Shown here piece after piece: positions 27,537-45,090 of a DNA stretch of 64,000 nucleotides. The notes under the pieces were generated by a model. It worked only from the letters and a program-made list of their open reading frames with translations, had not been told where the DNA came from and did no database searches. The position numbers were made by a program, and so were the translations under genes. The stretch's first letter is position 1. Every line of letters begins with the position of its first letter. The DNA is from a virus, in IMG/VR virus record IMGVR_UViG_3300042922_001062, positions 1 to 64,000 of that record; one strand, written 5' to 3'.

Positions 27537-27962
27537 CCACCTCATCTTCGGCAATGGCTACGGCATGGCTTCGCCGTTCTGTGATGCCCGCTATTACTGG
27601 CTCGTCGACACCCACCATCAGAAGCGGAGCGGTCGGAACGGAGAGCTCTATCAGTACGGCGCCGGCTTCGGGGCGCAGCTGAGGAGCCGGCAGTGGACGC
27701 ACCCCCGGGCCGGCGAACGCCGTAGACTTGCCGGCCGCGAGTTCGTGGTGTTCCACAGCACCCGGCGATGGTTCCGTGTCGAGGTGGCGTGGTCGATGGT
27801 CGGGCTGCCCCGGGCGATCGACGAGGCCAACGCCGCGCTCCGCGAGCTGGAACGGGACCTCGGGCGTGTCTAATCCCAACCCCACAAGGTGAAAACAACA
27901 GGTCACTTGTTGTTCCGCCGGTTCGTGGGCGACCTCGACCCGGAATTTTCCCTCCATGGGCA

Positions 27963-28074
27963 GGGGGGAGGGTCAAAAATCGACCATGGGTCAACCTACG
28001 GACCGGCGCCCCCTACATGCAGAGATTTTTTCCTCCCTGGACAAATTTCGGGGTGCGTACCAGCACTGCGTACT
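27963..28074 (+). other. Putative cos/packaging site of the helper
   Basis: Non-coding region between HNH and terS; GGGGGGAGGGTCAAAA..GGACCGGCGCCCCCT; duplicated in the satellite. Confidence 0.7.
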
Positions 28075-28078
28075 GCCG

Positions 28079-28648
28079 ATGAGCGATCAGAACTCCACCA
28101 TCGACTGGCCGGCGATCGAGCGTGATTTTCGTGCTGGATCAATGTCTAACCGCCAACTCGCTGATTGGTACTCGATCTCGGAAGGCGCGATCCGCAAGCG
28201 GGCGAAGAAGGAAGGTTGGACGAAGTCCGGTACGCAGCCGAAAGTGCGTACCGAGAGCGCGCACCGCGCTCCTCTCGCTCCGACGCCCACAACACCGGAG
28301 ACCACTGCGCCGGAGGCCATTGTCAGCCGGGGCCGCAATCTCACGCTCCGGCTTCTCGACGAACTCGAGGCCACCACCAGCCGCATCGGCGAGCTGGAGA
28401 TGATGATTGACGCTGTAGCCGACGGTGAAGACGCAGAAGAGCAACGCAAGGTCTTGAAGCAGATCATCTCGCTCAAGCAGCGCGCTGAAATCCTGAAGTC
28501 GCTCGCGCTGTCGGCAAAGACCCTTTCCGAAACGACAACCGCCGCTCCGGCCGGCAAGAAGGCCGAGAAGCAAGCCGCTGCGGAGAGGGTGGCAAGCAAG
28601 TTCGGTGTCCGTACCCCGCCTAAGCTGGTGGTCGACAACAAGCCATGA
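28079..28648 (+). CDS. terS: Terminase small subunit
   Basis: IDW.AIE.DFRAG..S.RQLA....[18 protein letters not shown]; overlaps terL start. Confidence 0.8.
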
Positions 28649-30324
28649 AGCCGTGGTCCACTGCCTGTCCTGATTGGGAACGACGGATCGTTGCCAAGCA
28701 GTCGCTGATCCCGTTCGCGCCGCTCTTCCCGTCGGAAGCAGAAGCCGCCCTGGAGGTCTTCAAGGCGCTGAAGATCGTCGACGCTCCTGGCAGTCCAACA
28801 TTCGGAGAAGCCTGCGAGCAGTGGGTGTTCGACTTCGTCGCCGCCATCTTCGGCGCGGCGGATCCGGAGACGGGCTCCCGGCTGATCCGAGAGTTCTTCC
28901 TGCTGATCAGCAAGAAGAACAGCAAATCGACGATCGCGGCCGGCATCATGCTCACTGCCCTGATCGTCAATTGGCGCCTCTCGGCGGAGTTGCTCATCCT
29001 GGCTCCGACGATCGAAGTCGCCGACAATTCGTTCAAGCCGGCGGCCGATATGGTCCGCCACGATGAGGAACTCTCAGATCTCCTGCATGTGCAGGACCAT
29101 ATCCGAACCATCACGCACCGCGTCACCAAGGCCTTCCTGAAGGTGGTCGCTGCGGACGCTGACACAGTGTCCGGCAAGAAGGCCGCCTTCGTTCTCATGG
29201 ACGAGCTCTGGGGTTTCGGAAAGAAGCCGCGCGCTGCTGCGATGCTGCGAGAGGCGACGGGTGGTCTCGTCTCGCGGCCGGAAGGCTTCGTGATCTATCT
29301 CTCAACCCAGTCCGACGAGGAACCCGCTGGCGTCTTCAAGGCCAAGCTGGACTATTTCCGGGGCGTTCGCGAAGGCACGATTGTCGATCCGACTAGTCTG
29401 CCGGTGTTGTATGAATTTCCGGAGCCAATGGTCGAAGCGACGTCGTATCTCGACCCGGCGAACTTCTACATCACGAACCCCAACATCGGACGGTCAGTCG
29501 ATCGGGGCTGGCTGGAAGATGAATATCGCAAGATCAAGGATGCGACCGGCGGCGAGCTGCAGGTCTTCTTGGCGAAGCATCTGAATGTCGAGATCGGTCT
29601 CCGCCTCGCACAGGATCGTTGGTCAGGAGCCGGCTATTGGCCTCGCTGTGCCCACCCGGCGCTGCGCGACCTCGATGTGTTCCTGGGCCGCTGCGACGTT
29701 GTCGTCGCGGGTGGTGACGGTGGAGGTCTCGACGATCTCTTCGGGCTCGTTTTGATCGGCCGTGACCGCGATACGCGAAAGTGGCTCCTTTGGGCGCACG
29801 CGTGGGCGCATCCTGACGTGCTTGAGCGCCGACAGGAAATCGCTCCGCGGCTGCGAGATTTCGAAGCCGAAGGCTCGCTCACCATCTGCAAGCACCCGAC
29901 ACAGGATCACGAAGAGATCGCTGCCATTCTTCAGCGGGTTCATCGCGCGGGGCTTTTGCCGGAAGAAGCTGCGATTGGACTTGATCCCTTCGGCGTGACC
30001 GCTCTCATCGACGTGCTGATCGAGGCGGGCATCAGCGAAGACCAGATCATCGGTATCGCTCAGGGCTACAAGCTGAACGGCGCCGTGCTTGGCCTGGAGC
30101 GCAAGCTGGCCGACGGCACCGTCGAACATGACGGCTCGACCATGATGAACTGGGTGGTCGGCAACGCGAAGGTGCAGAAGCGCGGCAATGCCGTGCTGGT
30201 GACCAAGGAAATCGCTGGCAAGGCCAAGATCGATCCACTCATGGCGGCCTTCAACGCAACGATGCTGATGGCGCGTAATCCCGAGCCGAAGCAAACCCCT
30301 TCCTATCAGATGATCATCATCTGA
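28645..30324 (+). CDS. terL: Terminase large subunit
   Basis: [11 protein letters not shown] Walker [24 protein letters not shown]. Confidence 0.93.
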
Positions 30325-30353
30325 GGCGGCTGCGACCGCCTGGAGATCCCGAC

Positions 30354-31481
30354 ATGAACCGGATGTATTCGGTCCTCACCGTCAAGGCGGTGGAGGATGA
30401 CCAGCGCATTATCCGCGGCACCGCCACCACGCCGTCGCCGGACCGCATGGGCGATATCGTCGAGCCGCTCGGCGTGACCTTCCAGAACCCGCTGGTGCTG
30501 CTTCACCAGCACGACAGCGACCGGCCGGTCGGCACGGTCACCTTCGACAGGCCGACGGCGAAGGGCATCACCTTCGAGGCGAGGCTCCCGACGATCGAAG
30601 AGCCCGGGCCGCTGAAAGACCGCGTCGACACCGCCTGGGGCGAGATCAAGGCCGGCTTGGTCCGTGCCGTCTCCATCGGTTTCCGAGCGCTCGAATACTC
30701 GTGGATGGATGATGGCGGCATCCGCTTCATCTCCACCGAGGTGCTCGAGCTCTCTCTCGTCTCCGTTCCGGCCAACGCCGAGGCGGTGATCTCCACCATC
30801 AAGTCGATCGACGCCCCTGTGCTCGCCGCGACCGGCAAGGGGCCGAAGGCGTCCGATCGGCCTGCACCTCCCGGCGTCTCGGGGAAATCCGTCAAACCAG
30901 TGAACCTGAGGCCGAAGGAGGCCAGGACCATGAAGACCATCGCTGAGCAGATTGCTGCTCTCGAAGCGTCGCGGCAGACCAAGGCCGCGCGCATGGCTGA
31001 AGTCATGCAGAAGAGCATCGACGAGGGCCGCTCGACCGACGCCGCGGAGCAGGAGGAGTTCGACACCCTTGAGCAGGAAGTGTCCGCGCTCGACGGCGAC
31101 CTCAAGCGCCTCCGCGCGCTGGAGAAGGCGCAGGCCGCCACCGGGAAGCCGGTGATCGCCAATCAGATCCGGACGGCCGAGCAGGGCACCACCGCGCGTT
31201 CGGGTGTCACCCTGAAGTCCGCGGCGCCGGATAAGGGCATCCGCTTCGCGCGGTACGCCAAGTGCCTCGCCATCTCCACCAAGACCCATCAGTCCGTGGT
31301 GTCGGTGGCCGAGGCCATGTACGGCGGCAAGGATGACGACTTCATCGACATCGTGAAGGCCGCTGTCTCGGCGATGACCACCGGCAACACCGATGCGCTC
31401 ATCGGCAACGAGGGCGGTTTCGCCGACTTCGTGGAATTCCTCCGCCCGATGACGAGTGTCAACCAAGCGGTCGCGATTTAG
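30354..31481 (+). pseudogene. 5' part of HK97-type prohead protease-major capsid fusion, interrupted by the satellite
   Basis: Protease motifs (DRMGDIV, LHQHD, VSIGF, ELSLVSVPAN) then coiled-coil capsid N-terminus; ends 9 codons after the att repeat. Confidence 0.9.
31436..31453 (+). repeat. attL core of the satellite (18 bp direct repeat)
   Basis: ATTCCTCCGCCCGATGAC, identical to 47198-47215. Confidence 0.95.
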
Positions 31482-31501
31482 CGAACACTTTCAATATGTT
31501 G

Positions 31502-31526
31502 AGCCCGGCCGTGCGCCGGGCTTTTT
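31502..31526 (+). terminator. Rho-independent terminator just inside satellite attL
   Basis: AGCCCGGC-CGTGC-GCCGGGCT plus TTTT. Confidence 0.8.
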
Positions 31527-31629
31527 CGTTTCCGTAGTGTCCACAGCGTTCAAGAAAATCAATGGCTTACACGGGCACCCGGTGCCTCCATGCGACAAAT
31601 GAGCGACAACGTAATCGAGGGAACTGGCT

Positions 31630-31902
31630 GTGAACGCGACAAAAAAAGCCGAAGGTGAAATCCTCTACGGGGTAAAGGCCATCGCGAAGTTTCTCGGGGT
31701 GACGCGCCGGCAAGCGCAACACCTCGTCGACTCCAAGGCGGTGCCAAGCTTCAAGATGGGGCGGACGGTGTGCGCCCGGCCCGAGCGGGTGCGAAGCGTG
31801 ATTGAAGCAGCGGAGAACGGCAGGGCCGCGCCAAGCGATCAGGTGGACCAACCGCAGGACGGCGGGCAGCTTAACCTTCTCGGCGGCGGCGAACATGGCT
31901 AG
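31630..31902 (+). CDS. Excisionase/AlpA-like HTH protein
   Basis: [18 protein letters not shown]......P.FK.G.TVCAR. Confidence 0.7.
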
Positions 31903-32959
31903 CGCCAGTATGCTCCCGATCGTCACGGTGTCGAATGGCATCGTGATTGCCTCCAGCCGCGACGTGGCGGCCTATTTCGACGCAGACCATCGCGTGGTGC
32001 TGCTGGCGATCGATACGCTCATGGTTGAGGCCCCCGACGTAGCCGAGGCACACTTCCGCGAGCACCACGGCGAGGCCAGGCACTACGACATGACGCGCGG
32101 TGGCCTAGCGCTGCTGGCGCGCTCGCTGAGCGGTCCGCAGGTCGGGCGGTGGCGTGAGCGCTATCTCGAAGCCTTCGACCGCCAGCAGCGCGCGCTGGGG
32201 CAGGGCAGCGCGCTCTCGGTGCGTCAGCATCAGCCGAGTCCGTCGCCGGCGTTGGTGCCTGCCCTGCCGGACAACCTTGCCGATGGTGAGCCTCTCACGA
32301 TGTCGAGCCGGGAGATCGCCGACCTCACCGGCAAGGAGCACGACAACGTCCGCCGGGACATCAAGAACCTCGCGGATGGGCTTTCCCTCAGCTTTGAGGA
32401 AAAGTCCGAACCGTCGGCAGGCGGGCGCCCCTCGAAGGTGTTTCTCCTTCCGAAGCGTGAGTGCCTGATCCTCGTCTCGGGGTACAGCATCGAGCTGCGT
32501 GCCCGTATCATCGATCGCTGGATGGAACTTGAGGTGCGGCAGGCGGACCCGGTGGCGATGTTCAACCCGTCCGATCCGCGCATCGTGTCGGCCGTGCTGT
32601 CCCATTGGCATCAGGAGGCCACGACGGCACACGCAGCGCTTGCCAAGGCCGAGGGCACGCTGGCGCGGATCGAGACCACTGCCGGCTCTCTCTGCATCAC
32701 GGACGCTGCGAAGGCGCTCTCGCACCCGCCCAAGGCGCTGTTCGCCAAGCTCTACCGCAACCATTGGACCTATCGGCGCGGTGGCAAGGGCGATTGGCTG
32801 GGCCATGCCGACAAGTGCCGTGCCGGCCTGCTGGATCACCAGCCTACGACTTATCAGCGTGACGGCGAGACGGTGATCGGCACGCAGGTCGTCGTGACAC
32901 CCAAGGGATTGCGGAAGCTGGCCGAGCTGCTCGCTCACGATCCGGATTGGAGGGACTGA
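31895..32959 (+). CDS. Rha-family regulator with two Rha domains and a C-terminal ANT/KilA-C domain
   Basis: ASSRDVA..F...H and [31 protein letters not shown]; [16 protein letters not shown]. Confidence 0.8.
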
Positions 32960-33186
32960 TGCCCGACATCATCGACGTCGACTGGGAATGCTGTGACGCC
33001 GAGGGTGAATCCTTTGAGCACCACGCCGAGCCGGACAAGGTGGCGGAAGGCCTGCTGATCGACGAGCCAGTGCTGGTGCGCTACCCCAACGGCCGTATAG
33101 CTGATGGCAACCGCATCGTGGTGACGGAGCGTGGCCTGGAGGCGCTGAAGTCCTTCGTCATCGAGGAATCGAAGGGCAGCCACTGA
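32959..33186 (+). CDS. Small acidic hypothetical protein
   Basis: RBS GGAGG; TGATG coupling. Confidence 0.55.
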   Translation: MPDIIDVDWECCDAEGESFEHHAEPDKVAEGLLIDEPVLVRYPNGRIADGNRIVVTERGLEALKSFVIEESKGSH

Positions 33187-33377
33187 GGGGGGGAGGTCAA
33201 AAGGTCAGACGGCGTCCGTCTCTGGACCGGCGCCCCCTACATGCAGAGATTTTTTCCTCCCTGGACAAATTCGGGGTGCGTACCAGCGCCGCGTACTACG
33301 TAATATCCATATGATATCAGGCAGATAGCCTCGGTACGCACCCTGCGTACCGCGCGTACTAAGTGCGCACTGCGTAC
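33187..33377 (+). repeat. Satellite copy of the helper packaging site plus GCGTAC cluster
   Basis: 33224-33271 identical (48 bp) to 28000-28047; similarity continues to about 33297. Confidence 0.9.
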
Positions 33378-33482
33378 CACTGATAGCAGAGGCCCCGGGG
33401 GGGTATGCGGAACGTCAGGGACGCCCTTCTCTGCACCGGCGGCCTCACCAAAACTCTCGCAAAGCCAGATTGAGGTCCCGGA

Positions 33483-33854
33483 ATGTCTAATCTGGCTTCC
33501 GAGATGAGCTTCGCGGCGCGCGTCGATGAGCGCGAGCGGATGATGCTGCAGGCGATCAGCCATGCGGGATGGTGGATGTCGCCCGACGGCCGGATCGGCG
33601 AACGGGATGCCGCGGCGCTCCTGGGGTACGGACACCCGGATTCATTCCGGAACGCGAGACGTCGCGCGGATCCTGGTGGGTGGCCACGTGTATTTCGCCT
33701 CGGCGGGAACGGAAACAAGCTGACCTATCAGGTCCGAGATCTGGCGGAGTTCGTCGAGCGCAAAGCAAATCCGCCGGCCGAAACCTACGATATTTTCCGC
33801 AAAGTCAATCGCGCGGGATCGGCGCTCTCCGACGCCCGTCGTAAGCTTGCTTGA
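33483..33854 (+). CDS. Hypothetical HTH-like protein
   Basis: ERDAAALLG..SFRN.R..P......YQVRDLAEFV. Confidence 0.55.
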   Translation: MSNLASEMSFAARVDERERMMLQAISHAGWWMSPDGRIGERDAAALLGYGHPDSFRNARRRADPGGWPRVFRLGGNGNKLTYQVRDLAEFVERKANPPAETYDIFRKVNRAGSALSDARRKLA

Positions 33855-34903
33855 CCTTGATAAGGAGCGAGCTGATGCGCATCAATTCCGCCGGACACCT
33901 GCCCGCGATCATGGGCTTTCTCGCCCGGGCGCACCTTGCCGGTGTTTCGCCCTTGGAGATCGCGGCGAAGGATGGTGCTCCGCCCGACCTTCAGCTCCTC
34001 GTCAGGGCTGCGACCGGTGCCGTCATGCTCGGCGACGTCGCTGCTGCTGGCGCGCTGCGCGCGGCGGTCGAAACCTTCATCGGGACGCTGCGCGGGCGCT
34101 CCATATTCTACACGCTCCTCGCTGATGGCGCGTTCGTCCGCGCGCCGATCCGCACACGGCTCACAGCAGTCGAGAACGGCGTGGTCGCCTACGTCGTGAG
34201 CGAGGGGCGTGCGAAGCCGGTTTCGAGGATCGGGCTCGACGCCGCGGGACTGGAACGCGCCAAGGCCACTTCGCTCATCGTGCTGACGCGCGAGGCTGTG
34301 TACGCATCCTCGCCGGCGCTGCTCGACTTCCTGACCTCTGAGCTGCAGGGCGCGGTCTCGGCGGCCGTCGACGCGGCCTTCATCGCAAGGATCATCGACG
34401 ACGGCTCGCCGAGCCTCACGCCGACCTTCAGCGCGTCGGGAGCGGGCATCGACGACATCAGGTTTGACCTCCGGCGACTGCTCGACGCCGTGAACGTCAC
34501 GGGCAGCGGCCATCTGGCATGGCTGATGTCGGCAGACGTCGCGAACCGCCTCGCCGTGCTCGTGGAGCACTTTCCCGGTATGGCGCCGAACGGTGGGACA
34601 TTGCTCGAGCAGCCGGCCTTCGTTTCCGAGGCCATCGACCCGGGCTCGCTGCACTGCCTCAACGCCGCGTCGATCGCGGCGGACAGCGAGGCCATCATCG
34701 TGCGGTCCAGCGACGTCGCCAGCGTCGTTATGGATACCGCCCCAGCGCAGGACAGCTCCACGCCGGCGGCGACGCAGAACGTGTCGATGTTTCAAACCAA
34801 CTCGACCGCCGTGCTCGCGGAGGCGTTTTTCGGAGCGCAACGGGTGCGGCCGAACGCGCTGGCGACGCTGACGGACATCGCCTGGGGCGACGTGGCCTCA
34901 TGA
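33851..34903 (+). CDS. Satellite-encoded HK97-fold capsid protein homologue
   Basis: VSEGRAKPVS, WLMS, VSMFQTNSTAVLAE align with helper WVGEGKGKP, WVMS, VSMFQTNSVAFRAE. Confidence 0.85.
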   Translation: MTLIRSELMRINSAGHLPAIMGFLARAHLAGVSPLEIAAKDGAPPDLQLLVRAATGAVMLGDVAAAGALRAAVETFIGTLRGRSIFYTLLADGAFVRAPIRTRLTAVENGVVAYVVSEGRAKPVSRIGLDAAGLERAKATSLIVLTREAVYASSPALLDFLTSELQGAVSAAVDAAFIARIIDDGSPSLTPTFSASGAGIDDIRFDLRRLLDAVNVTGSGHLAWLMSADVANRLAVLVEHFPGMAPNGGTLLEQPAFVSEAIDPGSLHCLNAASIAADSEAIIVRSSDVASVVMDTAPAQDSSTPAATQNVSMFQTNSTAVLAEAFFGAQRVRPNALATLTDIAWGDVAS

Positions 34904-35727
34904 GCAGGGTCGATCCCGCTACCGCAGCAGCGCTGAATAAAATTGACGTCCGCGTCGCGGAGATCGACGCCGCGCTCAAACGCCTCGACGCTGATGACTA
35001 CAAGCACTTCAAAGATTTGCACCGCGCCGGTGCAAACGAGAAGGTGCGGCAGCAGCTCAACGCGGAACGCGCGGTGCAGATGCACAACCGGGCGCGGGTG
35101 CTCGCAGGCGAGCCGGTTGAACAGCCAGCACCCACGGAGCAGGCCAAGGCACTGCGGCTGCCGCCGGTGGAGCTCTATGGCAAGGCCGAGCGACCCTGCA
35201 GAATCGAGCCAGCCATTACCCGCAGAGACGACTTGGTCGGCGTTGGCGATAGAACCGCCGATGAGATTCTCGATGTCGCCGAAGTTGAAGAGCGCGTGTC
35301 AGCGGACATCGCGCAGGCGATCGAGGTCGCCCACGCCAAGATGCGGGAGGCAATGACGCGCAATCCCACGTACGCGTTCGACTTGTCGACGCTGATCATG
35401 CTGAAGACCACCATCATCCAGGCGATGGCGCAGGCGACAATCATCGAAGCCGTCGGCGGTGTGCTGCGGCGCGAGCTCGAGGTGAAGCTCACCGATCGGA
35501 TCGCAGTGCTGGAAAAGCGGATCGAGGAGTTTGAGCGCGGCGGCTTCGAGTATCGCGGCATCTATCAGCGCGCCCAAGCCTACAGACGAGGTCAGGTCGT
35601 CACCCATGACGGAAGCATGTGGGTGGCCGCCAAGGACACCGTGCTGCCGCCGGGCGCGCCGGAAGGCATGAACGAGTGGACTTTGGCCGTTAAGCGTGGC
35701 CGGGACGGGAAGGACGCCACCCGATGA
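34900..35727 (+). CDS. Satellite homologue of the helper post-portal protein C-terminal domain
   Basis: YRGIYQ..Y.RG..VTHDGSMW..WTLAVKRGRDGKD vs helper YRGVFK..GDTVTWAGSLW..WTLAAKRGRDGKE. Confidence 0.8.
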   Translation: MSRVDPATAAALNKIDVRVAEIDAALKRLDADDYKHFKDLHRAGANEKVRQQLNAERAVQMHNRARVLAGEPVEQPAPTEQAKALRLPPVELYGKAERPCRIEPAITRRDDLVGVGDRTADEILDVAEVEERVSADIAQAIEVAHAKMREAMTRNPTYAFDLSTLIMLKTTIIQAMAQATIIEAVGGVLRRELEVKLTDRIAVLEKRIEEFERGGFEYRGIYQRAQAYRRGQVVTHDGSMWVAAKDTVLPPGAPEGMNEWTLAVKRGRDGKDATR

Positions 35728-35943
35728 AAGAGCAAGCCGTCGCCCTAACGAAGCGGTGCGTTGCGGCCTTCGTCGAGAAGATGGGCAGGCAGCCGGATGC
35801 GCACGAGCTCGATCTGCTCGCTGCGGCCGCGTGCCGGCATCTCCAAGACCGCGAGCACATGCGCCGATGGCCCGCCGCGACGGCGTCCGGATCTTCCACG
35901 GTGAACTAGCTCAAGCCTAGACCTCATAGCCTTAGGTGAGGCG

Positions 35944-36234
35944 ATGCCAAACTCAGAGATGCTCACAACTTACTCCCATGGTACCGTTTCAGTGACCAAG
36001 GGATCAAAGACCGTCCGGGGCAAAGGCGTTTTCTGGCTGGACGTGCGGTCGTGCGACAGCCTCGAAGCCGGGGACCGCTGCCTCACCACCATCGCCTCAG
36101 TAGACGCGACCGATTTCACCACATTGGAGCTTGCTGTGCCTTGGTGCGGCGAGACAGCGGAGGACGTCCCTTACGTGATCCGCTTCGACGCTCCGCAGCG
36201 ATTTCCCGGCTACAGGGGGCGCGCCGATGGCTGA
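35944..36234 (+). CDS. Stand-alone tail-fibre N-terminal domain
   Basis: YS.GTVSV..TIAS..LELAV..DVPYV.RFDAP shared with 36227. Confidence 0.65.
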   Translation: MPNSEMLTTYSHGTVSVTKGSKTVRGKGVFWLDVRSCDSLEAGDRCLTTIASVDATDFTTLELAVPWCGETAEDVPYVIRFDAPQRFPGYRGRADG

Positions 36235-37324
36235 CCTCTACAGCACCGGCACCGTCTCGGTGCCCAGCGGTGGCACGACTGTTACGCTGACCGGGGGGCT
36301 CTTTAGCGGTGTTCTCGCCGGCGATACGATCGAGATCGGCGAGCTTCCCGCGAAGACGATCGCATCGCCGACCGACGCCAGTCATCTGGAACTGGCCGTC
36401 GCGGTGACGTCCGATCAGGTGGATGTCCCCTATGTGCTTCGCTTCGACGCCCCGTCGCGCTTCACCTCCGGCTATCTCGCGGAGCAGGTGCGGGCGCTGA
36501 TCGCGCAGGCGGGCATCATCAAGGCCGCCCGGCCAAACTACGAGGTGCAGAGCCTCGGCGGCAACGCACCGCCTGGCTCTCCTGTGACGGGAGACATGTA
36601 CGTCGTCGGCACCGCGCCGACCGGCGCATGGGCTGGGCGGGCGAATAATTTGGCGCAGTGGACCGGCTCGGCGTGGCTGTTCACAGCGCCGGATCGAGGA
36701 ACGACGGTCGTTAGCGTGGCGACGGGTATTGTGTCGATCTGGGGCGGCGCGGCGTGGCTACCTTACATAGGCCCTGGCGCTTTCATGCAGACGCTGATGC
36801 CGGCGGCGACGCAGGCCGCGGCGCAGACTACGCTTGGGCTCGATAGGGCCGCCCGCACGCTCTGGACGGCGGATATCTCCACTCCTGTCGCGGCGATTAA
36901 CGTCCCGCTCGCGGCGGCGTATCGGGCGTTCAAGCTGACCATCGGCTGCCTCACCGGCTCGGATGCGACAGCCAACTTGATACACCGCATCAGCCGCGAC
37001 GGGTCCACGGTCGACACGGGTGCATCGGACTATCAGGGGTCTGCGCTTGTTGTCGTGGGTAGCGGAGTTTCCGCGGCGGCGCGGACGGCGTCGGATGCGT
37101 TTCTCGGCACGTTGACGGCCACGATGGTAGCAATGGACATCACGCCTGGCGCGGCCGGTCTGCCGTACATGTGCACTTCCCAGTCTATGGAGTTCGCCTC
37201 TGGATATCGTCTTGATTTCCGCGGTACCCGTGCCGCGAATGTCGGGCGCGCTCAGTTCATCCAGATCTACCCGTCAGCCGGCAATCTGACTGCTGGGACG
37301 CTGACGCTGGCCGGGTATCCGTGA
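36227..37324 (+). CDS. Tail fibre / receptor-binding protein with DUF2793
   Basis: APPGSPVTGD.YVVG..PTGAWAG....LA.W...AWLF.AP. Confidence 0.75.
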   Translation: MADLYSTGTVSVPSGGTTVTLTGGLFSGVLAGDTIEIGELPAKTIASPTDASHLELAVAVTSDQVDVPYVLRFDAPSRFTSGYLAEQVRALIAQAGIIKAARPNYEVQSLGGNAPPGSPVTGDMYVVGTAPTGAWAGRANNLAQWTGSAWLFTAPDRGTTVVSVATGIVSIWGGAAWLPYIGPGAFMQTLMPAATQAAAQTTLGLDRAARTLWTADISTPVAAINVPLAAAYRAFKLTIGCLTGSDATANLIHRISRDGSTVDTGASDYQGSALVVVGSGVSAAARTASDAFLGTLTATMVAMDITPGAAGLPYMCTSQSMEFASGYRLDFRGTRAANVGRAQFIQIYPSAGNLTAGTLTLAGYP

Positions 37325-37370
37325 CGCCCGCCGCCGGGCTTCGAGGTGGTGGCTCGGCGGTCAGATATGA

Positions 37371-37396
37371 AAAAGGCCGCCCCGAAGGGCGGCCTC
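37371..37396 (-). terminator. Terminator of 37410..37727
   Basis: AAAAAGGCCGCCCCGAAGGGCGGCCT. Confidence 0.7.
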
Positions 37397-37409
37397 TCTC
37401 ACCGTCCGG

Positions 37410-37727
37410 CTAGCACGGTGTCTGCTTATTGGTGCAATCGCGACGGCCGTCATCCGAATTGCCGCTGCCGGCGGCCTTGGCCTCGCCGGGGTTCATGGAG
37501 TTGTTGCGCCCCTCGCTGGGCATGGTCGATTTCGGCACACCGGAGCCAACGGCCGGGGACTGGTCCTTGTAGCGGCTCTCGGTGGTGCCCGAGCTATTGT
37601 CGGAGCCGGTTGTAGCTCCCGCCGTGGAACCCGAGTTCCCTTGGCCGCTGCTCTGGGCCATCACAGGTGTGCCGAGCGCCAGTAATGCTGCCAGCGTGGC
37701 GATGGAAGTCGTCTTGGCATAGTTCAT
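37410..37727 (-). CDS. Small secreted low-complexity protein (moron)
   Basis: Signal peptide (..LLALGTPVMA); RBS GAAGGAGG. Confidence 0.7.
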   Translation of the reverse strand: MNYAKTTSIATLAALLALGTPVMAQSSGQGNSGSTAGATTGSDNSSGTTESRYKDQSPAVGSGVPKSTMPSEGRNNSMNPGEAKAAGSGNSDDGRRDCTNKQTPC

Positions 37728-37751
37728 GAGTTCCTCCTTCGATATGAGGCG

Positions 37752-37776
37752 AACCCACAGCTCTAGATGACGTTCC
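37752..37776 (-). promoter_or_regulatory. EcfG-type promoter
   Basis: Minus strand GGAAC-N16-GGTT. Confidence 0.65.
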
Positions 37777-37941
37777 GACCAAATTGGCCGCTGAGGTACA
37801 CGGCTAATGCACCTCGCGCCAACGTGAGCACTTTCCTGCCAGGCGGCTATGTCGATTTATTCCTTCCGCGAATCGTCAATCATCGCCTCGATGGCCCCGA
37901 TCATCACTTCGAGGTCGGCGATCAGATGCAGTAACGATTTG

Positions 37942-38055
37942 CTCGACTTCCGCGGCACCCGCATCGCCAATCCAGGCCGTGCGCAGTTCATCCAGATATA
38001 CCCGTTCGCCGGTAATCTGGCAGCCGGCCCTCTCACGCTGAAGGACATTCTGTAG
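37942..38055 (+). pseudogene. Relic second copy of the tail fibre 3' end
   Basis: LDFRGTRIANPGRAQFIQIYPFAGNL vs LDFRGTRAANVGRAQFIQIYPSAGNL. Confidence 0.8.
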
Positions 38056-38066
38056 GAGCATCTCAC

Positions 38067-38504
38067 ATGAACATTCTGGACGTCGACGGCGTGATCAAGC
38101 CGGCCGACCCCGCCTGGATCGCCCAGCGCGCGCTTGACGCCCTCCCGGTGGCTCCGACGCCAGCGGACGTCATCGCCGAGCGCGAGCGGCGCCTGGCCCT
38201 CGGATTCGCCTACGACTTCGAAGACGAACGCGGCGTGCACCACATCGCGACCACCCCGGAAGACATGAAGGGCTGGGACGAGGTGACCATGCTCGCCAAC
38301 GCCGCCATCAATGCCGGCGTGGCGGCGACCGAGATCCTCATCCTCACCAGCACCGGCCCGGTCACCGTGACGGCCGCCGAGTGGCAGCAGGTGCTCCTCG
38401 CCTCGGCGAACTTCCGCCAGCCGATCTGGCAGACCAGCTTCGCGCTGCAGGCGATGGACCCGATCCCGGCTGACGTCACCGACGACGTGCACTGGCCGGA
38501 TTGA
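38067..38504 (+). CDS. DUF4376-like tail fibre assembly protein
   Basis: DV.AERERRLALGF..PIPAD..DD.HW; RBS AGGAG. Confidence 0.65.
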   Translation: MNILDVDGVIKPADPAWIAQRALDALPVAPTPADVIAERERRLALGFAYDFEDERGVHHIATTPEDMKGWDEVTMLANAAINAGVAATEILILTSTGPVTVTAAEWQQVLLASANFRQPIWQTSFALQAMDPIPADVTDDVHWPD

Positions 38505-38708
38505 CCTCCCAAGCGCCGCACGGTCATGACCGCTCGAGTTGATGGGCCGCGCTTGGTCTATTCGGGCACGAGGAAAGCCCAGCAGAATCCTGATTATCCA
38601 CCACTGGCCGGAAGAGATCGGAAAGGCCGCTGGCCACGGCAGTAGCGGCTTGAACAAGTCTCGCCCGGCGCGCCACAATTGCGGATGGGCATCCGAATCT
38701 GTACCGAC

Positions 38709-39356
38709 ATGCAATGCGTCGTCGACTGGCTCTACACGTGGCAGACGCTCATCTCGGGCGTGTTGGCACTGGGGGCGGCGGCGATGACTGTGGGGCTTCT
38801 GCGGATCCAGATCGAGGACGAGCGCGCCCGACACCGTTCCCAGCGGATAGCTAAGACATTGGCGGCCCGAGCGACGTTGCCAGATGCCCTGAGCGACATC
38901 GCGCGATACACCCGGGAGTGCATGGCTTATCTCGTCGGCAAGCGAGCCGAGCCACCGTTGGCGCCGGCCGACGGGATAGCCGCGATCAAGGGCGCAATTG
39001 AATTCTGCGATGGCGACCCGGCCACCGCTCTCTTCGCTCTCGCCAGCTATTATCAAGTCCAACGAGCCCGGCTGGCGGAACATCGAGTTCGCCGAGGTCC
39101 AGAAAATCTGGACCGAATGCGAGATTGTGCGCACCTCAGAGCGCTGAGCGATCGGCTATTCGATTACGCTCGAGGAGAAGGCCTCGATGTTCGGACGGGT
39201 CGGCCGGATCCTGAAGAAGTTGTGAGGGCACTTGGCCAGATCGTCGGGCCTGGACCCATGATGACTCGTCCGAACGAACGTGCTCGGCTCGAGGCCTGGA
39301 TAAGAGGCACTCCCTTACGCCCCGACGACGAAGATGAGGCCGAGGAAGACGAGTAG
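38709..39356 (+). CDS. Membrane-anchored hypothetical protein
   Basis: WQTLISGVLALGAA TM segment. Confidence 0.6.
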   Translation: MQCVVDWLYTWQTLISGVLALGAAAMTVGLLRIQIEDERARHRSQRIAKTLAARATLPDALSDIARYTRECMAYLVGKRAEPPLAPADGIAAIKGAIEFCDGDPATALFALASYYQVQRARLAEHRVRRGPENLDRMRDCAHLRALSDRLFDYARGEGLDVRTGRPDPEEVVRALGQIVGPGPMMTRPNERARLEAWIRGTPLRPDDEDEAEEDE

Positions 39357-39566
39357 ACGTCGGCTTGGCGGGTGCTCGCCTCCACGGTCTCTCTCGATCC
39401 CCGATGCCGCCGAATTGACACTGCTGCCGATCATGATGAACGTGTAGTGGCGGCGTAGGCGCCATGCCGGGCGAGAGCCTCGGCCTGGCCCTGCAGATCC
39501 TGACGGCTTTCCTATTCGGAGCGGAACAGGAGTAGGGACTGCCTCAGAGAATCTTGATTTACGTCC

Positions 39567-39632
39567 CTATAGTCCGGCCGCCTTGCGGAGCGCGGCATTG
39601 ATGCGATCCTGCCAGCCTGGCCCGTCCGAAGA
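39567..39632 (-). pseudogene. BrnA-like antitoxin C-terminal remnant
   Basis: Reads DGPGWQDRINAALRKAAGL-stop; no start codon, in-frame stop upstream. Confidence 0.65.
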
Positions 39633-39647
39633 CGAACCTTAGTTCGT

Positions 39648-42077
39648 TCAGGCAGCCGCAGGCTTTTGCCGAGCCACGTACATTGCCATAGGCACGCACG
39701 GCAAATGGTGATTCGAGCTCGACATGAGGAGCAATCGGTTCACGTTGTTGTCCTGGAACCCGCCGATCCGTATCACCGATTGCAGCCATCCGATGGAATG
39801 CGGCACTCTGGCCTTCTTGATAAGGCGTTGGATGGCTGTCCTACTTCGGGAATGTCGCGCCGCCAATTGCGCTTCGAAGTTTGGCTTCACTTCTTCCGCC
39901 TTCAGAGACTTTAGGTAGTTGAACGTGCGACGGATCACCGATCGGAACTCGACGAATTCAGGTGCTTCTCTCAAGCTAAGGATATCGTCGCACTGGGTCG
40001 GAAACTCCAGTGGGGCTGACCGGATGTCTGCCGCAAGCGAATGTAGCGTCGATGAAGTTCCCAAATAGCGGCGGTTCAAAGCTGCGTTCAGCTCCAGCCA
40101 ACGATGCTTGCTGTCAGTGAGGATCTGCGCCCCCGTGGCTTGCGCCAAATACATGGCGATTTCGAAGTTGGGTGCCAACTTCATGAGCTGGATCTGTCCA
40201 CCTGTTTCGGGAGCCAAGCTCTCCGGTTGGAGCACGGCAAGCGGGTCGGCCTCTCGGAGCTGGCCGATTTGCGGCATCAGTTCGTCGAGATCGACTGTTT
40301 CGCCCTGCGGCATTGCTCGAGCGATCTGATTGCGTAGCCCCTCTTCGGACAAAGCGAGGAGTGTGCGCTTGAAGTCGTCGCGCATCAGTTCCTCCATCCG
40401 AGGGTCGTTTGAAATCTCGAACTCAAGGCCGGATGCCCGCGCCCTGGCCATCGCCATCATTTGATCGCGCAGGTGGATGTCGAAGTCACAAGGATCGGGG
40501 ATCAGGTTGACCAGACCCGCCTCGACCAACGGCATCATGCTCACGAAGAAATGGATCGTCTTCAACAGTTCGCCCCGGTACTGACCCGGGTGCTCGGTCG
40601 GACGGAATTTCTTATTCAGGGTGCCGGGGTGGACGAAAGGGTGCTGAATCAGCATTTCACCGAAATACAGCGGCGAACCAATCGCGAATTCGTTGATGTG
40701 CTGGGGATGGAGGGAGCCGGTATAGACCGATCGAAGCTGCCCGTCCGGCTTTGGGAGTAAGTCGAGCAGGTCGGTTTCCAGTGGCCATAGGCCTTCGTAA
40801 AGGCTATAGGCACTTGCAATCTTTTCGTCGGTCATCTCGCGCCGAACTTGGGTCCAGTCCTTTCTGTCCAGTTCAAGGAGGTTCGACAAGCCGCGGAGAA
40901 GCATAAGGTTTCGCTCGCGGATGCTCCTAGCCGTCCAGCTCGGCCTTAGCTCGGATGGCTTCGGCTCGCAGCATCTGGCGAAGAGGTCGCCGGACCCACA
41001 ACCACAAGAGTCCTTCGGTTTCAGCGGTGACACCGGCAGATCCTTTTGAAGGAACGCGCGCGGCTTTTCTGACCGGCCAAACTCATCCTGATAGTGAACA
41101 TGTCCGCTGTCGAATTTGGCAAACATTTCACCGCCAAAAAGGTGGAGTTCGGTCTCTGGTGGTCGTAGTGTCTCCCGCAACTCCTTCCAAGATTTCTTCA
41201 CCGTTTTCTCTGGATAAAGCCATGCCTCGCGTCCAGCAGCGATGTATCTTTCGGAGCGAGCCTTGAGGATGAAGTTGATCTCCGAGACTTGTTGATCATC
41301 GAGTTCGCGAGACCGGATGAAATCGATCGTCGATACCATCGTCGGATGAAAGTTCCGAGCGAAGGTCCGGTTCTCAAGCGGATTCACGTCCGGGTTCTTT
41401 GCATACTCAAGATTTGTCAGGATCAGGCAGTGGTCTGGTCCCAGAGGGAAGATGGTCTGCGAACCTTTCCATGCAATTGCCGGATCGTCGGTTTGGTCGC
41501 AACCAAGGTCTGCGGGAGGAGCAGCATAGTTATAAATCGTTACCGGATGGTCGGTAATGATGAACTTGACAGAGGCATTTCCCGCCGAGACAATCTCCCG
41601 GACGCCAGTGGTCCAAATGGTACAATTGAGAAAACGAATACCCTGCATCTCAAGCATAAGCTCATTCTGGGAAAGCTCAGGGTACTGTCGCTTTAGCCAC
41701 TCTAGGCCCTTTGGAGTGCGAAGCTTTTGGATGTCGATATACTCGAAAAAGGTCTTGAAGTGGGAGTGCCATGCGGCCTTGTCCAAGCCAGAGAGGGCGC
41801 GGACCGCGTCCGCGCCGCGGGTGTCAATGTCGCCGAATAGTTGTCGCTCGATTTCATCGTTTACCGCCGTTCCAAAGAATGTTGAATAAAGATCCCTTTG
41901 AACGAACGCACGGGATGTTGGAGAGTCAAACAATGACCGCCCTGTGTTTTTTCCTCCATCCCTCCGTGTGAAAATCGGCGGTGACAAGTCGAGATAGAAT
42001 AAGGTTCTGCCTCCGTCGGTGAGGAAGCGTTCTTGATACCATTGGGGAACGTAGTGATTATTTCTTCTTACTGACAT
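39648..42077 (-). CDS. DUF4238 plus SEC-C motif protein (candidate anti-phage)
   Basis: NNHYVPQWY, FIITDHPV, IFPL.PD.CL; CGCGSG..F..CC; lower GC. Confidence 0.75.
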   Translation of the reverse strand: MSVRRNNHYVPQWYQERFLTDGGRTLFYLDLSPPIFTRRDGGKNTGRSLFDSPTSRAFVQRDLYSTFFGTAVNDEIERQLFGDIDTRGADAVRALSGLDKAAWHSHFKTFFEYIDIQKLRTPKGLEWLKRQYPELSQNELMLEMQGIRFLNCTIWTTGVREIVSAGNASVKFIITDHPVTIYNYAAPPADLGCDQTDDPAIAWKGSQTIFPLGPDHCLILTNLEYAKNPDVNPLENRTFARNFHPTMVSTIDFIRSRELDDQQVSEINFILKARSERYIAAGREAWLYPEKTVKKSWKELRETLRPPETELHLFGGEMFAKFDSGHVHYQDEFGRSEKPRAFLQKDLPVSPLKPKDSCGCGSGDLFARCCEPKPSELRPSWTARSIRERNLMLLRGLSNLLELDRKDWTQVRREMTDEKIASAYSLYEGLWPLETDLLDLLPKPDGQLRSVYTGSLHPQHINEFAIGSPLYFGEMLIQHPFVHPGTLNKKFRPTEHPGQYRGELLKTIHFFVSMMPLVEAGLVNLIPDPCDFDIHLRDQMMAMARARASGLEFEISNDPRMEELMRDDFKRTLLALSEEGLRNQIARAMPQGETVDLDELMPQIGQLREADPLAVLQPESLAPETGGQIQLMKLAPNFEIAMYLAQATGAQILTDSKHRWLELNAALNRRYLGTSSTLHSLAADIRSAPLEFPTQCDDILSLREAPEFVEFRSVIRRTFNYLKSLKAEEVKPNFEAQLAARHSRSRTAIQRLIKKARVPHSIGWLQSVIRIGGFQDNNVNRLLLMSSSNHHLPCVPMAMYVARQKPAAA

Positions 42078-42134
42078 TGCCCTTTAGCATCGCTCCCGCC
42101 GCTAGTTGCTGCAATTCTTACCGGCTTGGGCGAA

Positions 42135-43397
42135 TTAAGGATGGCCTCGCAGCGCGATCATCTTGTTCGCGACACGGGCGGCCAAGTCGGAATGAAACTC
42201 CTCAAGGCTCTCCGCGGCTTCGATGAGGGCTTCGTCGGCACCGTCATCGTCCATCGCTTCGACCAGCTGCTCGACCTGTTGCGCAAGCTCTTCGAGCGCC
42301 TGATAGAGCCGGGTGCATTGGTCCAGAGTGAGCGACGGGTCGGCGAGGGCAGCGGGGACATCCTTGGCGAGATGCTTCGCCCTCTCGCCGCGCTCGCGCA
42401 GCAAAGTCATCCAGTCCGTCGCCATGTCGACGCGCTCCAGCAAAGCCGTCAGCTCCGCCCGTTTCAGGGTCGCCTCGATAGTGGTCTCCTTCAACGCAGG
42501 TCCGCCGGGGCGGTGGGGGGACGTGACGGCCGCCCGAACGGCCAGTGCGCTCGATGGTGGCGCAGCGCCGATCGTGGCCATGAAATCCCCTTCGGGCACG
42601 ATGCGCACGATATGGCCGGCGGCGAGCATGGCTTCGGCCTTGAGGTGCTTCGCGCTCTTGGGCGTGCCGAAATGCACGTCTCGATCGCCGAGCACGAGCA
42701 TGGTGGTGTGGCGGGTGACGCCCGGATGAACGTCGGCGCCAGCGGCCGCGGCAAGATCGGCCGCGGCGCTCTTGCCGAGCTCCAGCTTGCCGGTGAACAC
42801 CACGACCTGGCCCGACAACGGCCCGTCGCCGACAGCCTCTCGGCGGATCGGAGCCGCCTTCTCGCCGGAGACCGGCAGTTCAACGCGGCGGAACCAGCCG
42901 TCCAGGTCCAGGCCGGTTTCTTCCATGGCGCGGTGCAGGATCACGCCGGCGGCGCGCGCGTCCTCAAGAGCGTCGTGGTGACGGAAGGCGATGCCGAACT
43001 CGGCGGCAATGATCGGCAGGCTGTAGCTCGCCCTGTCGGGCCATGCCCGCCGGGCGACGCGGATTGTGTCGAGCCAGCGGTTGCCGACGGATGCCAAGCC
43101 ATGGCGATCGCAGGCCCGCATCAGCGACGTCCGGTCGAAGGGTCCATGGCTGATAACGGGCCGGTCACCGAGAGCATTGAGAAGCCAGTCGTGCCGGTGG
43201 CGGAAGGGCAGGCACCCCGCGACGGCTTCCTCGTCGATGCCATGAATGCCGACGTTAAAGGCGTCGAAATAGTCCTCCGGGTCGATGAGGTGACATTCGG
43301 CGTGGATCTCTCTGCCGCCATCGAACACGACGACGCCAAGCTGGCAGATGCTGCTGTAGTTCGCGTTCGCGGTTTCTACATCGATCGCGACGAACAT
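42135..43397 (-). CDS. DEDDh 3'-5' exonuclease with BRCT domain
   Basis: FVAIDVETAN, HHDALEDA; GQVVVFTG.L..VT..TT.LV.G. Confidence 0.85.
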   Translation of the reverse strand: MFVAIDVETANANYSSICQLGVVVFDGGREIHAECHLIDPEDYFDAFNVGIHGIDEEAVAGCLPFRHRHDWLLNALGDRPVISHGPFDRTSLMRACDRHGLASVGNRWLDTIRVARRAWPDRASYSLPIIAAEFGIAFRHHDALEDARAAGVILHRAMEETGLDLDGWFRRVELPVSGEKAAPIRREAVGDGPLSGQVVVFTGKLELGKSAAADLAAAAGADVHPGVTRHTTMLVLGDRDVHFGTPKSAKHLKAEAMLAAGHIVRIVPEGDFMATIGAAPPSSALAVRAAVTSPHRPGGPALKETTIEATLKRAELTALLERVDMATDWMTLLRERGERAKHLAKDVPAALADPSLTLDQCTRLYQALEELAQQVEQLVEAMDDDGADEALIEAAESLEEFHSDLAARVANKMIALRGHP

Positions 43398-43468
43398 GGC
43401 TCCCTCCCATACCTTCCGGAAGGTTGCACATCGGCTCCGTTCACGGCAAGCGCGCCTGTTCTGCGACG

Positions 43469-44317
43469 CTACTCGGTGAGCAGCCCCGCCAAACGCCCCT
43501 TTGCGATAAGATAGCTAACAAAGGAAGCGCACGCTCCCAGCATGAACAACGCGTCAGCCTCGTCGACGTTCGCGGCGTCTTGGTCGAGCAGCGAGTGCCG
43601 TATGCCTTTCTCGTCGCTGGCATAGCCATAAAGGGCCGAGAATCCTTTCTTCATTGCCTCGTGGATGGCGCCAGCCTTTTCCAGTTTGACCAGAGCGGGG
43701 CCAAGTGTAGTCGATCCCGGCGCTAGCTGTACTGCGACCGCTTCAACAGCATGGATAGCTTCGCGCACGCAGTCCGGATACTTTCCTGCAGTGGCAGCTT
43801 CTATCGAGGACCTCAAATGGGCATAGGCGCCGGTGATGCCGACAGCGCGTGCGGACTTGAGTGCTGCTTCGAGAGCTGCAGCCTCCGTCGGATCGGTTAT
43901 GGGGGCAATAGTATCCCCGTCGACCACGCGATAAGCTGCGTGACAATTAACTAAAACGTCGGCAATATGCTTGCGGAATGCGGCTGGCGTATAATTGAAT
44001 CTTAGTATCCATTCAATAAATCCAAAAACTTCTACGTAGTCGCCGTTCTCTATAATTGTCTGAATTCGTCGTATTTGTTGAAAGTGCAAAGAAATGTATT
44101 CACTAGAGAATCTATTTTGATGAAATACAAACTCCGCCTTGAGAATTGCATTCCATGGCTCGGCAACGGTGTGGTCGCCGCGCCTTGGAAGAACATGCAT
44201 GTCGAACACGAAGAACAATTGAGCCCTCAGTTGAGGGGAAAGTTTTTTCAAGGCGAGTTGCGTTGGTAACGGTGCGCGACCTTCGGCTTGCTCAAAGGAG
44301 ACTAATTTCCTGTCCAT
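43469..44317 (-). CDS. AbiJ-like N-terminal domain plus HEPN-like protein (candidate abortive infection)
   Basis: SFEQAEG..LR..L, EVFGFIE, REAIHAVE, LYGYASDEKGIRHS; AT-rich. Confidence 0.6.
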   Translation of the reverse strand: MDRKLVSFEQAEGRAPLPTQLALKKLSPQLRAQLFFVFDMHVLPRRGDHTVAEPWNAILKAEFVFHQNRFSSEYISLHFQQIRRIQTIIENGDYVEVFGFIEWILRFNYTPAAFRKHIADVLVNCHAAYRVVDGDTIAPITDPTEAAALEAALKSARAVGITGAYAHLRSSIEAATAGKYPDCVREAIHAVEAVAVQLAPGSTTLGPALVKLEKAGAIHEAMKKGFSALYGYASDEKGIRHSLLDQDAANVDEADALFMLGACASFVSYLIAKGRLAGLLTE

Positions 44318-44346
44318 GATCCGCCCCACTTCCAATGCGTGGCAAC

Positions 44347-44549
44347 CTGCCATTGGAGTACCGGCAGCGCAATGAGCGCCTTCGCGATCCCCTCTTGGCG
44401 GAGGGGGCGAAGCAGCGCATAAATGGGATTGGGCTTGAACACCCGGACGAAAGTTATAGCGCGACGCCCTTGGCGGGGCTTGGCGCCGAAGCACAGCGCC
44501 CTTGGCGGGGCGGTGTGCAAGGTCGCACCTTGGCGGGTGCGCCGGACCT
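44347..44549. ncRNA. Candidate structured RNA: four hairpins with TTGGCG loops
   Basis: Hairpins at 44389-44406, 44466-44479, 44491-44518 and 44524-44541 have different stems and the same loop. Confidence 0.6.
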
Positions 44550-44694
44550 GGCCATCATGGCCGGGAGCGGTGCGCTATGTCCAGAGGGTACGCCCTTAAA
44601 AGCGCGTCGGCCTGTAACTTTCGCAGGTGTTCAACTCCCGGCTGCCGGTCTGCTACCGGCGACGGCCTTGAACAGCCGAACGAAAGTACATCCC

Positions 44695-45090
44695 ATGAAC
44701 ATGAACGCCAGCCGGCCGAGACCGGCCAGCATCCCACCGACCGAGGTCGCGCGGAAGCTTCTCGACATCCGTCACGACCTCCAGCGCGAGCTTCAGCGCG
44801 TGGACACCCTGCTTGCAATGCTCGGCGCCCCGGTGGCGGCGGCAGGGTGTCAGCCGGACACTCCGGCGGGACGTGGCCCCAATTTCGGGGAGACGTCGGC
44901 GAGTGATCTCCTCTATGGAGCGCCAGCCATTGCGGGCTATCTTGGCCTTACCGAGAAGCAGGCCCGGCACCGTATCGAGGCGGGGAATATTCCGGCCTTC
45001 AAGATCGGCGGCACGGTGTGCGCCCGCCAATCCTCCCTGTCCACATGGCTCGCGAACCTCGAAGCCGCAGCCGCGCATGCGGAGGACTGA
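44695..45090 (+). CDS. Excisionase-like HTH protein, paralogue of 31630
   Basis: LLYGAPAIAGYLGLTEKQARH..IPAFKIGGTVCAR. Confidence 0.7.
   Translation: MNMNASRPRPASIPPTEVARKLLDIRHDLQRELQRVDTLLAMLGAPVAAAGCQPDTPAGRGPNFGETSASDLLYGAPAIAGYLGLTEKQARHRIEAGNIPAFKIGGTVCARQSSLSTWLANLEAAAAHAED

Follow-up and report, generated by a model that had tools for sequence, protein, structure and literature searches.

The 64-kb window analysed here, which comprises the first 64 kb of the 79.5-kb IMG/VR record IMGVR_UViG_3300042922_001062, carries a siphophage prophage whose fused protease-scaffold-capsid gene is split by a 15,762-bp element encoding a capsid protein homologue of its own. The element is integrated site-specifically in the helper capsid gene, its open reading frame (ORF) at 33851-34903 is an intact HK97-fold major-capsid-protein homologue, and it belongs to a recurrent same-site family that also occurs as a free circle. 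We regard it as probably a helper-embedded satellite whose capsid protein would assemble satellite-specific small heads after excision, with cos packaging by the helper terminase, a reading drawn from sequence comparison and predicted structure.

Site-specific insertion into the helper capsid gene

The late operon of the helper lies on the plus strand, as do all oriented features below unless stated otherwise, and runs from terS and terL through a 375-aa ORF, the insert and the 3' part of the capsid gene to the portal, connectors, major tail protein, tape measure and fibres. The large terminase gene (28645-30324; phrog_9, E 3e-123; Pfam TerL_ATPase and TerL_nuclease) is followed by the 5' part of the fused gene (30354-31481), whose 375-aa product contains a Peptidase_S78 domain at residues 47-149 and aligns to positions 10-372 of phrog_617, the 'major head protein' profile of 626 positions that represents proteins with protease, scaffold and capsid fused. 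A preliminary description of this DNA had held that the truncated helper gene still encodes the complete protease and coiled-coil region, and this alignment bears it out. Helper codons run to 31453, after which eight codons from the element and a stop complete the fragment. The HK97 domain is encoded by the 3' part at 47211-48089 (phrog_617 positions 368-626, E 2e-71; Phage_capsid, 2e-15), and the profile coordinates of the two halves adjoin (372/368). The break falls at the codons E-F-L-R-P, within an 18-bp identity block present as a direct repeat at 31436-31453 (attL) and 47198-47215 (attR); the core-like pattern TTCCTNCGNCC has no further occurrence in the 79.5-kb record. Excision of 15,762 bp in silico between the repeat copies gives a 657-codon open frame reading ...FVEFLRPMTIVGRF..., and the corresponding halves are contiguous in about 47 related phage and prophage loci drawn from IMG/VR and from genomes. 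In these uninterrupted loci terL is followed by capsid and then portal, and the junction motif x-E-[FY]-x-R-P is nearly universal.

Independent evidence for the insertion came from an empty-site control in which public contigs were aligned to positions 29500-48800 of the window. Contigs of a near-identical helper in three plant-metagenome runs (X2-X4, from another study) fuse position 31435 to 47198, with their joints falling in the attL identity block. In one contig of 3,570 bp, whose flanks show 5 and 13 differences, the joint skips 15,762 bp inside the 18-bp block. These contigs establish that a helper with an intact capsid gene exists in nature and that the borders of the element are exact. 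In the soil run that is the probable origin of the record (X1), read depth is even over helper and insert; the runs listed as containing this DNA included no RNA run. An attP joint was not found in the contigs of any run examined; contigs drop rare variants, so the missing joint is uninformative on excision. The repeat, the restored frame and the empty site in three runs together uphold the earlier observation that the helper capsid gene is disrupted, by an element that behaves like a satellite.

Two other origins of the arrangement were considered and rejected. A chance juxtaposition of two prophage remnants does not accommodate capsid halves that abut in the profile or an empty site that occurs naturally. 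A complete nested prophage would carry terminase, portal, tail-tube and lysis genes, and the insert has none of these.

The capsid homologue and the copied cos-like site

The satellite capsid ORF spans 350 codons, and an AAGGAG Shine-Dalgarno box lies 7 nt 5' of the ATG at 33875. Translation probably begins at this codon, which an automatic gene caller also picked, and yields 342 aa. The GC content at third codon positions of this gene (0.85) resembles that of the helper late genes and reflects typical coding bias. Its product matches Pfam Phage_capsid (PF05065) over residues 76-341 at 32.2 bits, above the curated cut-off of 24.2, and its phrog_617 alignment covers positions 312-626 (E 9e-21). 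A BLASTP comparison with the helper capsid 3' fragment (47211-48089) gave 32% identity over 276 aa (E 2e-27), and the alignment includes V.EG..KP, W.MS and VSMFQTNS.A..AE, the three motifs that the preliminary description had reported as common to both proteins. There is no significant similarity to the helper protease/coiled-coil fragment, as expected from its further statement that the ORF lacks both of these regions. Read against the helper protein, the satellite protein retains the capsid-proximal ~70-90 residues of the scaffold (delta) region and is without the coiled-coil segment (helper residues ~193-270) and the protease.

Structure prediction, which the preliminary description had put forward as a check for the HK97 fold, supported that fold. 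An AlphaFold (AF2) model built from a 34-sequence alignment (predicted local distance difference test score, pLDDT, 77; predicted template modelling score, pTM, 0.67) places five short helices at residues 17-91 ahead of an HK97 core, and its best Foldseek matches in the PDB, all of them HK97-fold capsids, are those of Bxb1, Cozz, D3 and HK97 (E 5e-13 to 1e-10, probability 1.00). A phmmer search against PDB sequences matched nothing, and a single-sequence scan of genomes and viral contigs with the capsid protein gave no match; relatives were retrieved with an alignment as the query. Among stand-alone homologues of equal length the identity rises to 54% (P0002), and one from Sinorhizobium medicae (P0003) is 42% identical. 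The satellite capsids of the window and of two relatives (L087 and L191) cluster with such stand-alone capsids of ~340 aa, separate from helper-type capsids, and the satellite capsid homologues of the family are 23-36% identical to helper capsids. By these comparisons they appear to be old lineages and not fresh copies of the helper capsid. Separately, a Rhodanobacter chromosome and an alphaproteobacterial metagenome-assembled genome have stand-alone capsid genes of this clade at a distance of a few kb from an integrase gene (L003 5076-6344 and 10001-11011; L004 2360-3745 and 9818-10687); these may belong to chromosomal satellites of the same capsid lineage.

The sole long DNA identity between insert and helper lies in the non-coding gap ahead of the satellite capsid operon. 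There, positions 33224-33297 are 96% identical over 75 bp to helper positions 28000-28074, the core of a cos-like region at 27962-28075. The helper terS ORF is annotated at 27956-28648, with its PHROG terS match beginning at residue 45 and the true start at about 28079, which places the cos-like region directly upstream of the gene. The cos sites of such phages lie immediately upstream of terS. Comparable copies were found in relatives of the element, namely 43-57-bp copies (86-96% identical) of the sequence just upstream of the helper terminase region in the full records of L060 and L061, and a 75-bp copy of the helper region upstream of terL in the L174 composite. The 75-bp copy in the window is likely a cos/pac mimic, and the element, which shares this sequence and has no terminase, portal or tail-tube genes of its own, would rely on its helper for packaging.

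Element and helper differ substantially in size. The helper is estimated at ~40-52 kb, taking its left limit at the early genes (14 kb) or at a tRNA-Asp gene (1.2 kb) and its right limit at the lysis genes (69 kb of the record), and subtracting the insert. A search for the ends of the helper prophage found none; the tRNA-Asp (1127-1203) has no matching repeat at a far end, and no second integrase was found with a hidden Markov model in the 79.5-kb record. Against this estimate a 15.8-kb element is reasonably described as about one third of the helper, the ratio that the preliminary description had given as an upper limit. A cos-packaged unit of 15.8 kb would underfill a head of helper size, and either small heads or the packing of about three copies would follow.

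The recurrent family and the probable role of its capsid homologues

The element is one of several that occupy this site. Four other prophages (L060, L061, L191 and L088) have integrases 63-68% identical to that of the window directly upstream of a capsid 3' half, at the same codons, and the att cores of the relatives read TTCCT(C/G/T)CG(G/C)CC. Three of these cases are complete: 10 kb upstream they have the 5' half of the capsid gene together with alpA and a capsid homologue separate from it. The sixth family member is a 10.7-kb circle recovered from two samples, once as L167 (1-10756, with a 56-bp terminal overlap) and once, permuted, as L087 (1-10878). In its attP the core is flanked by one arm from the int side and one from the alpA side, as predicted from the attR and attL sites of its relatives, and besides a capsid homologue the circle encodes an HNH endonuclease and a tape measure of 669 aa. 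A more distant relative, L174, is a 9.8-kb insert that splits terL and has both terL halves, alpA, a 486-aa capsid homologue and a tape-measure gene. A capsid homologue is therefore present in every complete capsid-site member as well as in this terminase-site relative. Right after its capsid homologue, L191 (3972-5087 and 4933-5841) encodes an S78 prohead protease that stands alone and includes part of the scaffold. Tape-measure genes were also observed in L061 (6074-8101), L087 (818-2827) and L174 (5211-7097), encoding 628-675 aa against 811 aa in the window's helper, which hints at altered tail length; the window's element has no tape-measure gene.

The integrase at the right end of the window's element (45868-47190; Pfam Phage_integrase, 9e-22) ends 7 nt before attR. 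The alignment of the family retrieved 120 integrases, and in a tree built from them the six found at the capsid site group as one clade (support 100); a separate clade (support 99) consists of three that adjoin a terminase gene cut off at residue ~79-86. A larger group of 26 (support 92) unites the capsid-site clade with integrases abutting several kinds of truncated late gene, comprising Terminase_1-type terL, gpA-type terminase (from profile positions 52 and 68), two portal families (one from position 169), ClpP protease (positions 19 and 118) and a J-like tail-tip gene. Integrases 25-39% identical to that of the window stand directly upstream of 5'-truncated genes for terL (L172, L173, L174, L180 and L185), gpA terminase (L184 and L170/L171), portals (L179, L181 and L183), ClpP (L200 and L177) and the J-like protein (L233), with both gene halves verified for the capsid-site cases and L174 only. 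Most other integrases in the tree lie at contig ends and resemble ordinary prophage integrases. This distribution suggests a second, unrelated integrase clade with a preference for prophage late genes, mirroring the late-gene tropism of the helper-embedded phage-inducible chromosomal islands (HE-PICIs).

For the capsid homologue itself, the balance of probability tips slightly towards a dedicated role in building or sizing satellite heads. Such a role is favoured because relatives keep a capsid homologue whatever late gene they interrupt, as L174 illustrates, and because the homologues are apparently old lineages. In the sequence of events that we propose, the satellite would be replicated passively inside the induced helper, and Int and AlpA would then excise it, restoring the helper capsid gene. 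The helper terminase would recognise the copied cos site and package unit-length satellite DNA into small heads holding ~16 kb rather than ~50 kb, formed by the satellite capsid protein alone or mixed with helper subunits and using the helper portal and, in trans, the helper protease. These heads would finally be joined to helper tails bearing the satellite fibre.

Several points weigh against this proposal. The insert contains no portal, terminase, scaffold or protease gene, so that head assembly by the capsid homologue alone is conjectural. Transfer of a gram-negative phage-inducible chromosomal island (PICI) persisted when its capsid gene was deleted (as cited in PMC10111431). Multimers in helper heads of normal size would fit the sizes equally well (3 x 15.8 kb, ~47 kb). 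The contigs of the source run X1 are all of the integrated form, with neither an attP nor an attB joint found there. An intrinsic-terminator-like hairpin just inside attL (31501-31523), which lies downstream of int once the element is circular and has equivalents with a T-run in L060, L061, L191 and the circular L087, could also block helper late transcription from reaching the capsid homologue unless it is antiterminated. Helper late transcription may therefore not simply enter the element, unlike in the HE-PICI Eco567.11capE (11capE), where it was proposed to run into the element (PMC10111431).

The preliminary description had offered two functions for the protein, redirection of head size or replacement of the capsid with help from the leftover helper protease and scaffold. 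Its identification of a true capsid homologue in the satellite stands, and simple replacement of the broken gene is disfavoured by L174, which spares the helper capsid gene, and by L191, which brings its own protease. We consider it improbable, if the best placed of the alternatives, that the homologue is a backup copy which, in unexcised composites, replaces the broken helper capsid and uses the 375-aa fragment as free scaffold and protease, so that heads form before or without excision. The satellite protein does lack exactly what the leftover fragment supplies, the protease and the coiled coil; the fragment ends just eight codons beyond the junction and is followed by a terminator; the S78 protease beside the capsid gene of L191 suggests that a free protease is useful; and the idea was raised by the authors of the HE-PICI study (PMC10111431). 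It is difficult to reconcile, however, with the capsid homologue of L174, whose insertion interrupts a terminase gene, and it cannot be general in the wider integrase clade. It also conflicts with the need to excise for packaging, and a composite of helper plus 15.8 kb would overfill a helper-sized head. At 32% identity to the helper capsid the satellite protein is not a recent copy, and the intact int, alpA and att sites, the empty site and the circular relative point to excision as the normal route.

A more elaborate version, to which we give a similarly low probability, joins these elements. Integration would convert the helper's fused gene into a free 375-aa protease-scaffold protein that the satellite capsid uses in trans to build small heads from unexcised genome copies; the E-F-L-R-P point would have been selected for separating the two functions; and, more broadly, the integrases of this lineage would represent a second clade, of independent origin, that inherently targets the late genes of prophages, namely those for capsid, ClpP protease, tail tip and two types each of terminase and portal.

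It is less probable again that the capsid homologue is a functionless relic, left over from captured late genes or from a decayed nested prophage. The absence of replication, portal and terminase genes and the mosaic content with defence cargo would fit a relic, and late-gene capture is frequent in such elements (PMC10111431). Searches of the insert with Pfam, PHROGs and PADLOC found no primase, single-stranded DNA-binding protein (SSB) or Rep gene. A relic is at odds, however, with the open frame, good start and typical codon bias of the gene, with stand-alone homologues of the same length at up to 54% identity, with a capsid gene in all complete family members, with a cos copy that is 96% identical, and with a relative that forms a 10.7-kb circle. 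Finally, satellites commonly inhibit their helpers, and a helper-capsid homologue without scaffold coiled coil and protease might co-assemble with helper subunits and poison or misdirect helper heads, mainly cutting helper yield, but this is the least probable function of all, as the same element already blocks the helper capsid gene physically and the gene is conserved alongside the cos copy and other virion genes, which fits particle building.

Further gene content and comparison with known satellites

The int and AlpA-like genes of the element lie at opposite ends and hence on either side of attP. The left-end AlpA/excisionase-like helix-turn-helix (HTH) gene (31630-31902) matches HTH_17 weakly and is 47-48% identical to its equivalents in L060 and L061. 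It is followed by a Rha/KilAC antirepressor of the Bro network (31802-32959; Pfam Phage_pRha, 1e-27, and ANT, 1e-18; phrog_63) and by a 123-aa ORF without a family match (33483-33854) that overlaps the start of the capsid gene. A 275-aa gene (34900-35727) overlaps the capsid stop by ATGA. The N-terminal part of its product is coiled-coil-like, its C-terminal ~55 aa are common to the collagen-like post-portal protein of the helper (49626-51146), and its neighbours in the Atlas are proteins resembling carbohydrate-binding module (CBM) family 5/12 or 'portal-associated' proteins, which serve as leads only.

Downstream, a tail-fibre module (35944-37324) comprises a 96-aa anchor-like ORF and a DUF2793 fibre (36227-37324), and a DUF4376 fibre-chaperone-like ORF follows at 38067-38504. 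Residues 1-180 of the satellite fibre are 85% identical to the helper fibre (record 64889-65428) and unrelated to it beyond; the helper fibre gene, at L086 889-2082 or record 64889-66082, lies outside the window. This pattern suggests that the satellite fibre has had its receptor-binding tip swapped while keeping an anchor compatible with the helper. Downstream of the gene, a direct repeat of 99 bp (37211-37309 and 37942-38040, 76% identical) duplicates the C-terminal coding end of the fibre; exchange of fibre tips may have left it behind or may use it as a cassette.

Low-GC cargo of defence type occupies the minus strand at 39648-44494 and comprises a DUF4238 protein, a DEDDh exonuclease-BRCT protein (PDC-S48) and an AbiJ-like protein (PDC-S32). 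A second AlpA-like HTH gene (44890-45090) and a 143-aa ORF without a family match (45329-45760; 69% identical to its L233 homologue) precede int. We observed that positions 7635-9920 of L233 and 43469-45760 of the window have in common an AbiJ-like gene, the second alpA and the ORFs o114 and o143 (56-69% aa identity), while the integrase of the L233 element, next to a J-like gene, is just 36% identical to that of the window. Satellites with different targets seem here to have exchanged modules. A search of Rfam at E <= 1 found no C4/isrK-type immunity RNA in the element, just two sub-threshold, chance-level matches.

On the helper side, the portal gene (48515-49873; phrog_2271, E 4e-133) overlaps the next ORF (49626-51146) by ~250 nt. 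The two jointly match one 859-position 'portal' PHROG, and the second contains collagen repeats and a CBM-like end; the overlap could reflect a frameshift, a split gene or a normal two-gene form. The helper also encodes a GapR (UPF0335) homologue at 15045-15314 (E 8e-28 to Caulobacter-type GapR structures), which suggests an alphaproteobacterial host.

Reports of helper-embedded satellites are so far limited to a single integrase clade in Enterobacteriaceae. The present case and its relatives indicate that the same strategy, built on a conserved codon block of a helper late gene, a capsid homologue and a copied packaging site, arose independently in high-GC bacteria associated with soil and plants, where it employs an unrelated integrase and another gene order and apparently dispenses with replication genes. 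They provide a natural system for asking how a capsid protein without scaffold and protease forms or resizes heads, why such integrases home to late genes, and how satellites swap fibres and defence cargo. They also call for caution, as 'broken' capsid genes in prophage predictions can be switch-like insertions and not decay.

The closest precedent is the HE-PICI 11capE of Escherichia coli (Tommasini et al. 2023, NAR Genom Bioinform, PMC10111431), which lies in a major capsid gene and has its own capsid and decoration genes, and which stands closer than SaPIbov5 Ccm, the known case named in the preliminary description. In NC_017634.1 we found 11capE between the capsid-gene halves in the order int-alpA-...-primase-SSB-capsid-decoration-HTH, with HEPN and DUF262 genes on the other strand. 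In HE-PICIs, as in the window's element, attP carries no replacement sequence, so that excision is needed to make the helper gene whole, and in HE-PICIs the composite excises and replicates upon induction while the satellite excises later (PMC10111431). Both elements thus sit inside a helper capsid gene with a capsid gene of their own and defence-type genes on the opposite strand, a match that extends to the combination of capsid and decoration genes with antisense defence cargo. The window's element resembles HE-PICIs more generally in its helper-shared sequence at the cos position, its protein of the Bro network and a 'late zone' that is dynamic and has taken up helper genes.

The lineages nevertheless differ. 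The two integrases are 22% identical (E 7e-4); that of 11capE carries the P4-type Arm-DNA-bind_3 domain, which the window's integrase lacks, and is a distant outgroup (branch 3.35) outside all 120 relatives in the tree, and its partner is a Phage_AlpA protein where that of the window matches HTH_17 weakly. HE-PICIs follow a four-zone order of int-alpA, Bro, replication (primase) and late genes, whereas in the window alpA lies at attL and int at attR, pointing outward, and Bro-type and late genes are present with no primase or SSB found. The doubled attP-arm motif of HE-PICIs, TGTATTGC, occurs nowhere in the window. The target here is a fused protease-scaffold-HK97 capsid gene and that of 11capE a lambda E-type gene, and the host here is probably a soil alphaproteobacterium, whereas the published HE-PICI set is confined to Enterobacteriaceae, its authors having discarded non-enterobacterial integrase matches (PMC10111431).

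Two further groups of satellites bear on the capsid homologue, and neither matches the window's element as closely. SaPIbov5 Ccm is the capsid homologue of a cos-packaged staphylococcal island and is linked to small heads. Like it, the window's protein is an HK97-fold homologue of the helper capsid in a satellite carrying a helper cos-type site, but SaPIbov5 sits in the chromosome and not in its helper, and the capsid homologues have no sequence relationship; with a Ccm-type change of head size the window's element would be compatible by size ratio only. Capsid-forming PICIs (cf-PICIs) carry a full head and packaging module of portal, protease, connectors and terminase. They share with the window's element an HK97-fold capsid protein of their own and, as proposed here, tails taken from the helper, and a cf-PICI capsid (9gyi) is among the structural matches, but the window's element has just the capsid homologue and one adjacent head-related gene.

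A final parallel is regulated gene integrity, or active lysogeny, as in the skin element in sigK and the phage in comK, where an integrase-bearing element splits a gene that precise excision restores (PMC10111431). In the present case the interrupted gene is itself part of a mobile element, the helper, and it is probably the satellite that benefits. The arrangement itself has thus been published for HE-PICIs (PMC10111431), and what appears new here, on the sequence comparisons above, is its occurrence in an independent lineage that departs from HE-PICIs in architecture, target gene and host range.

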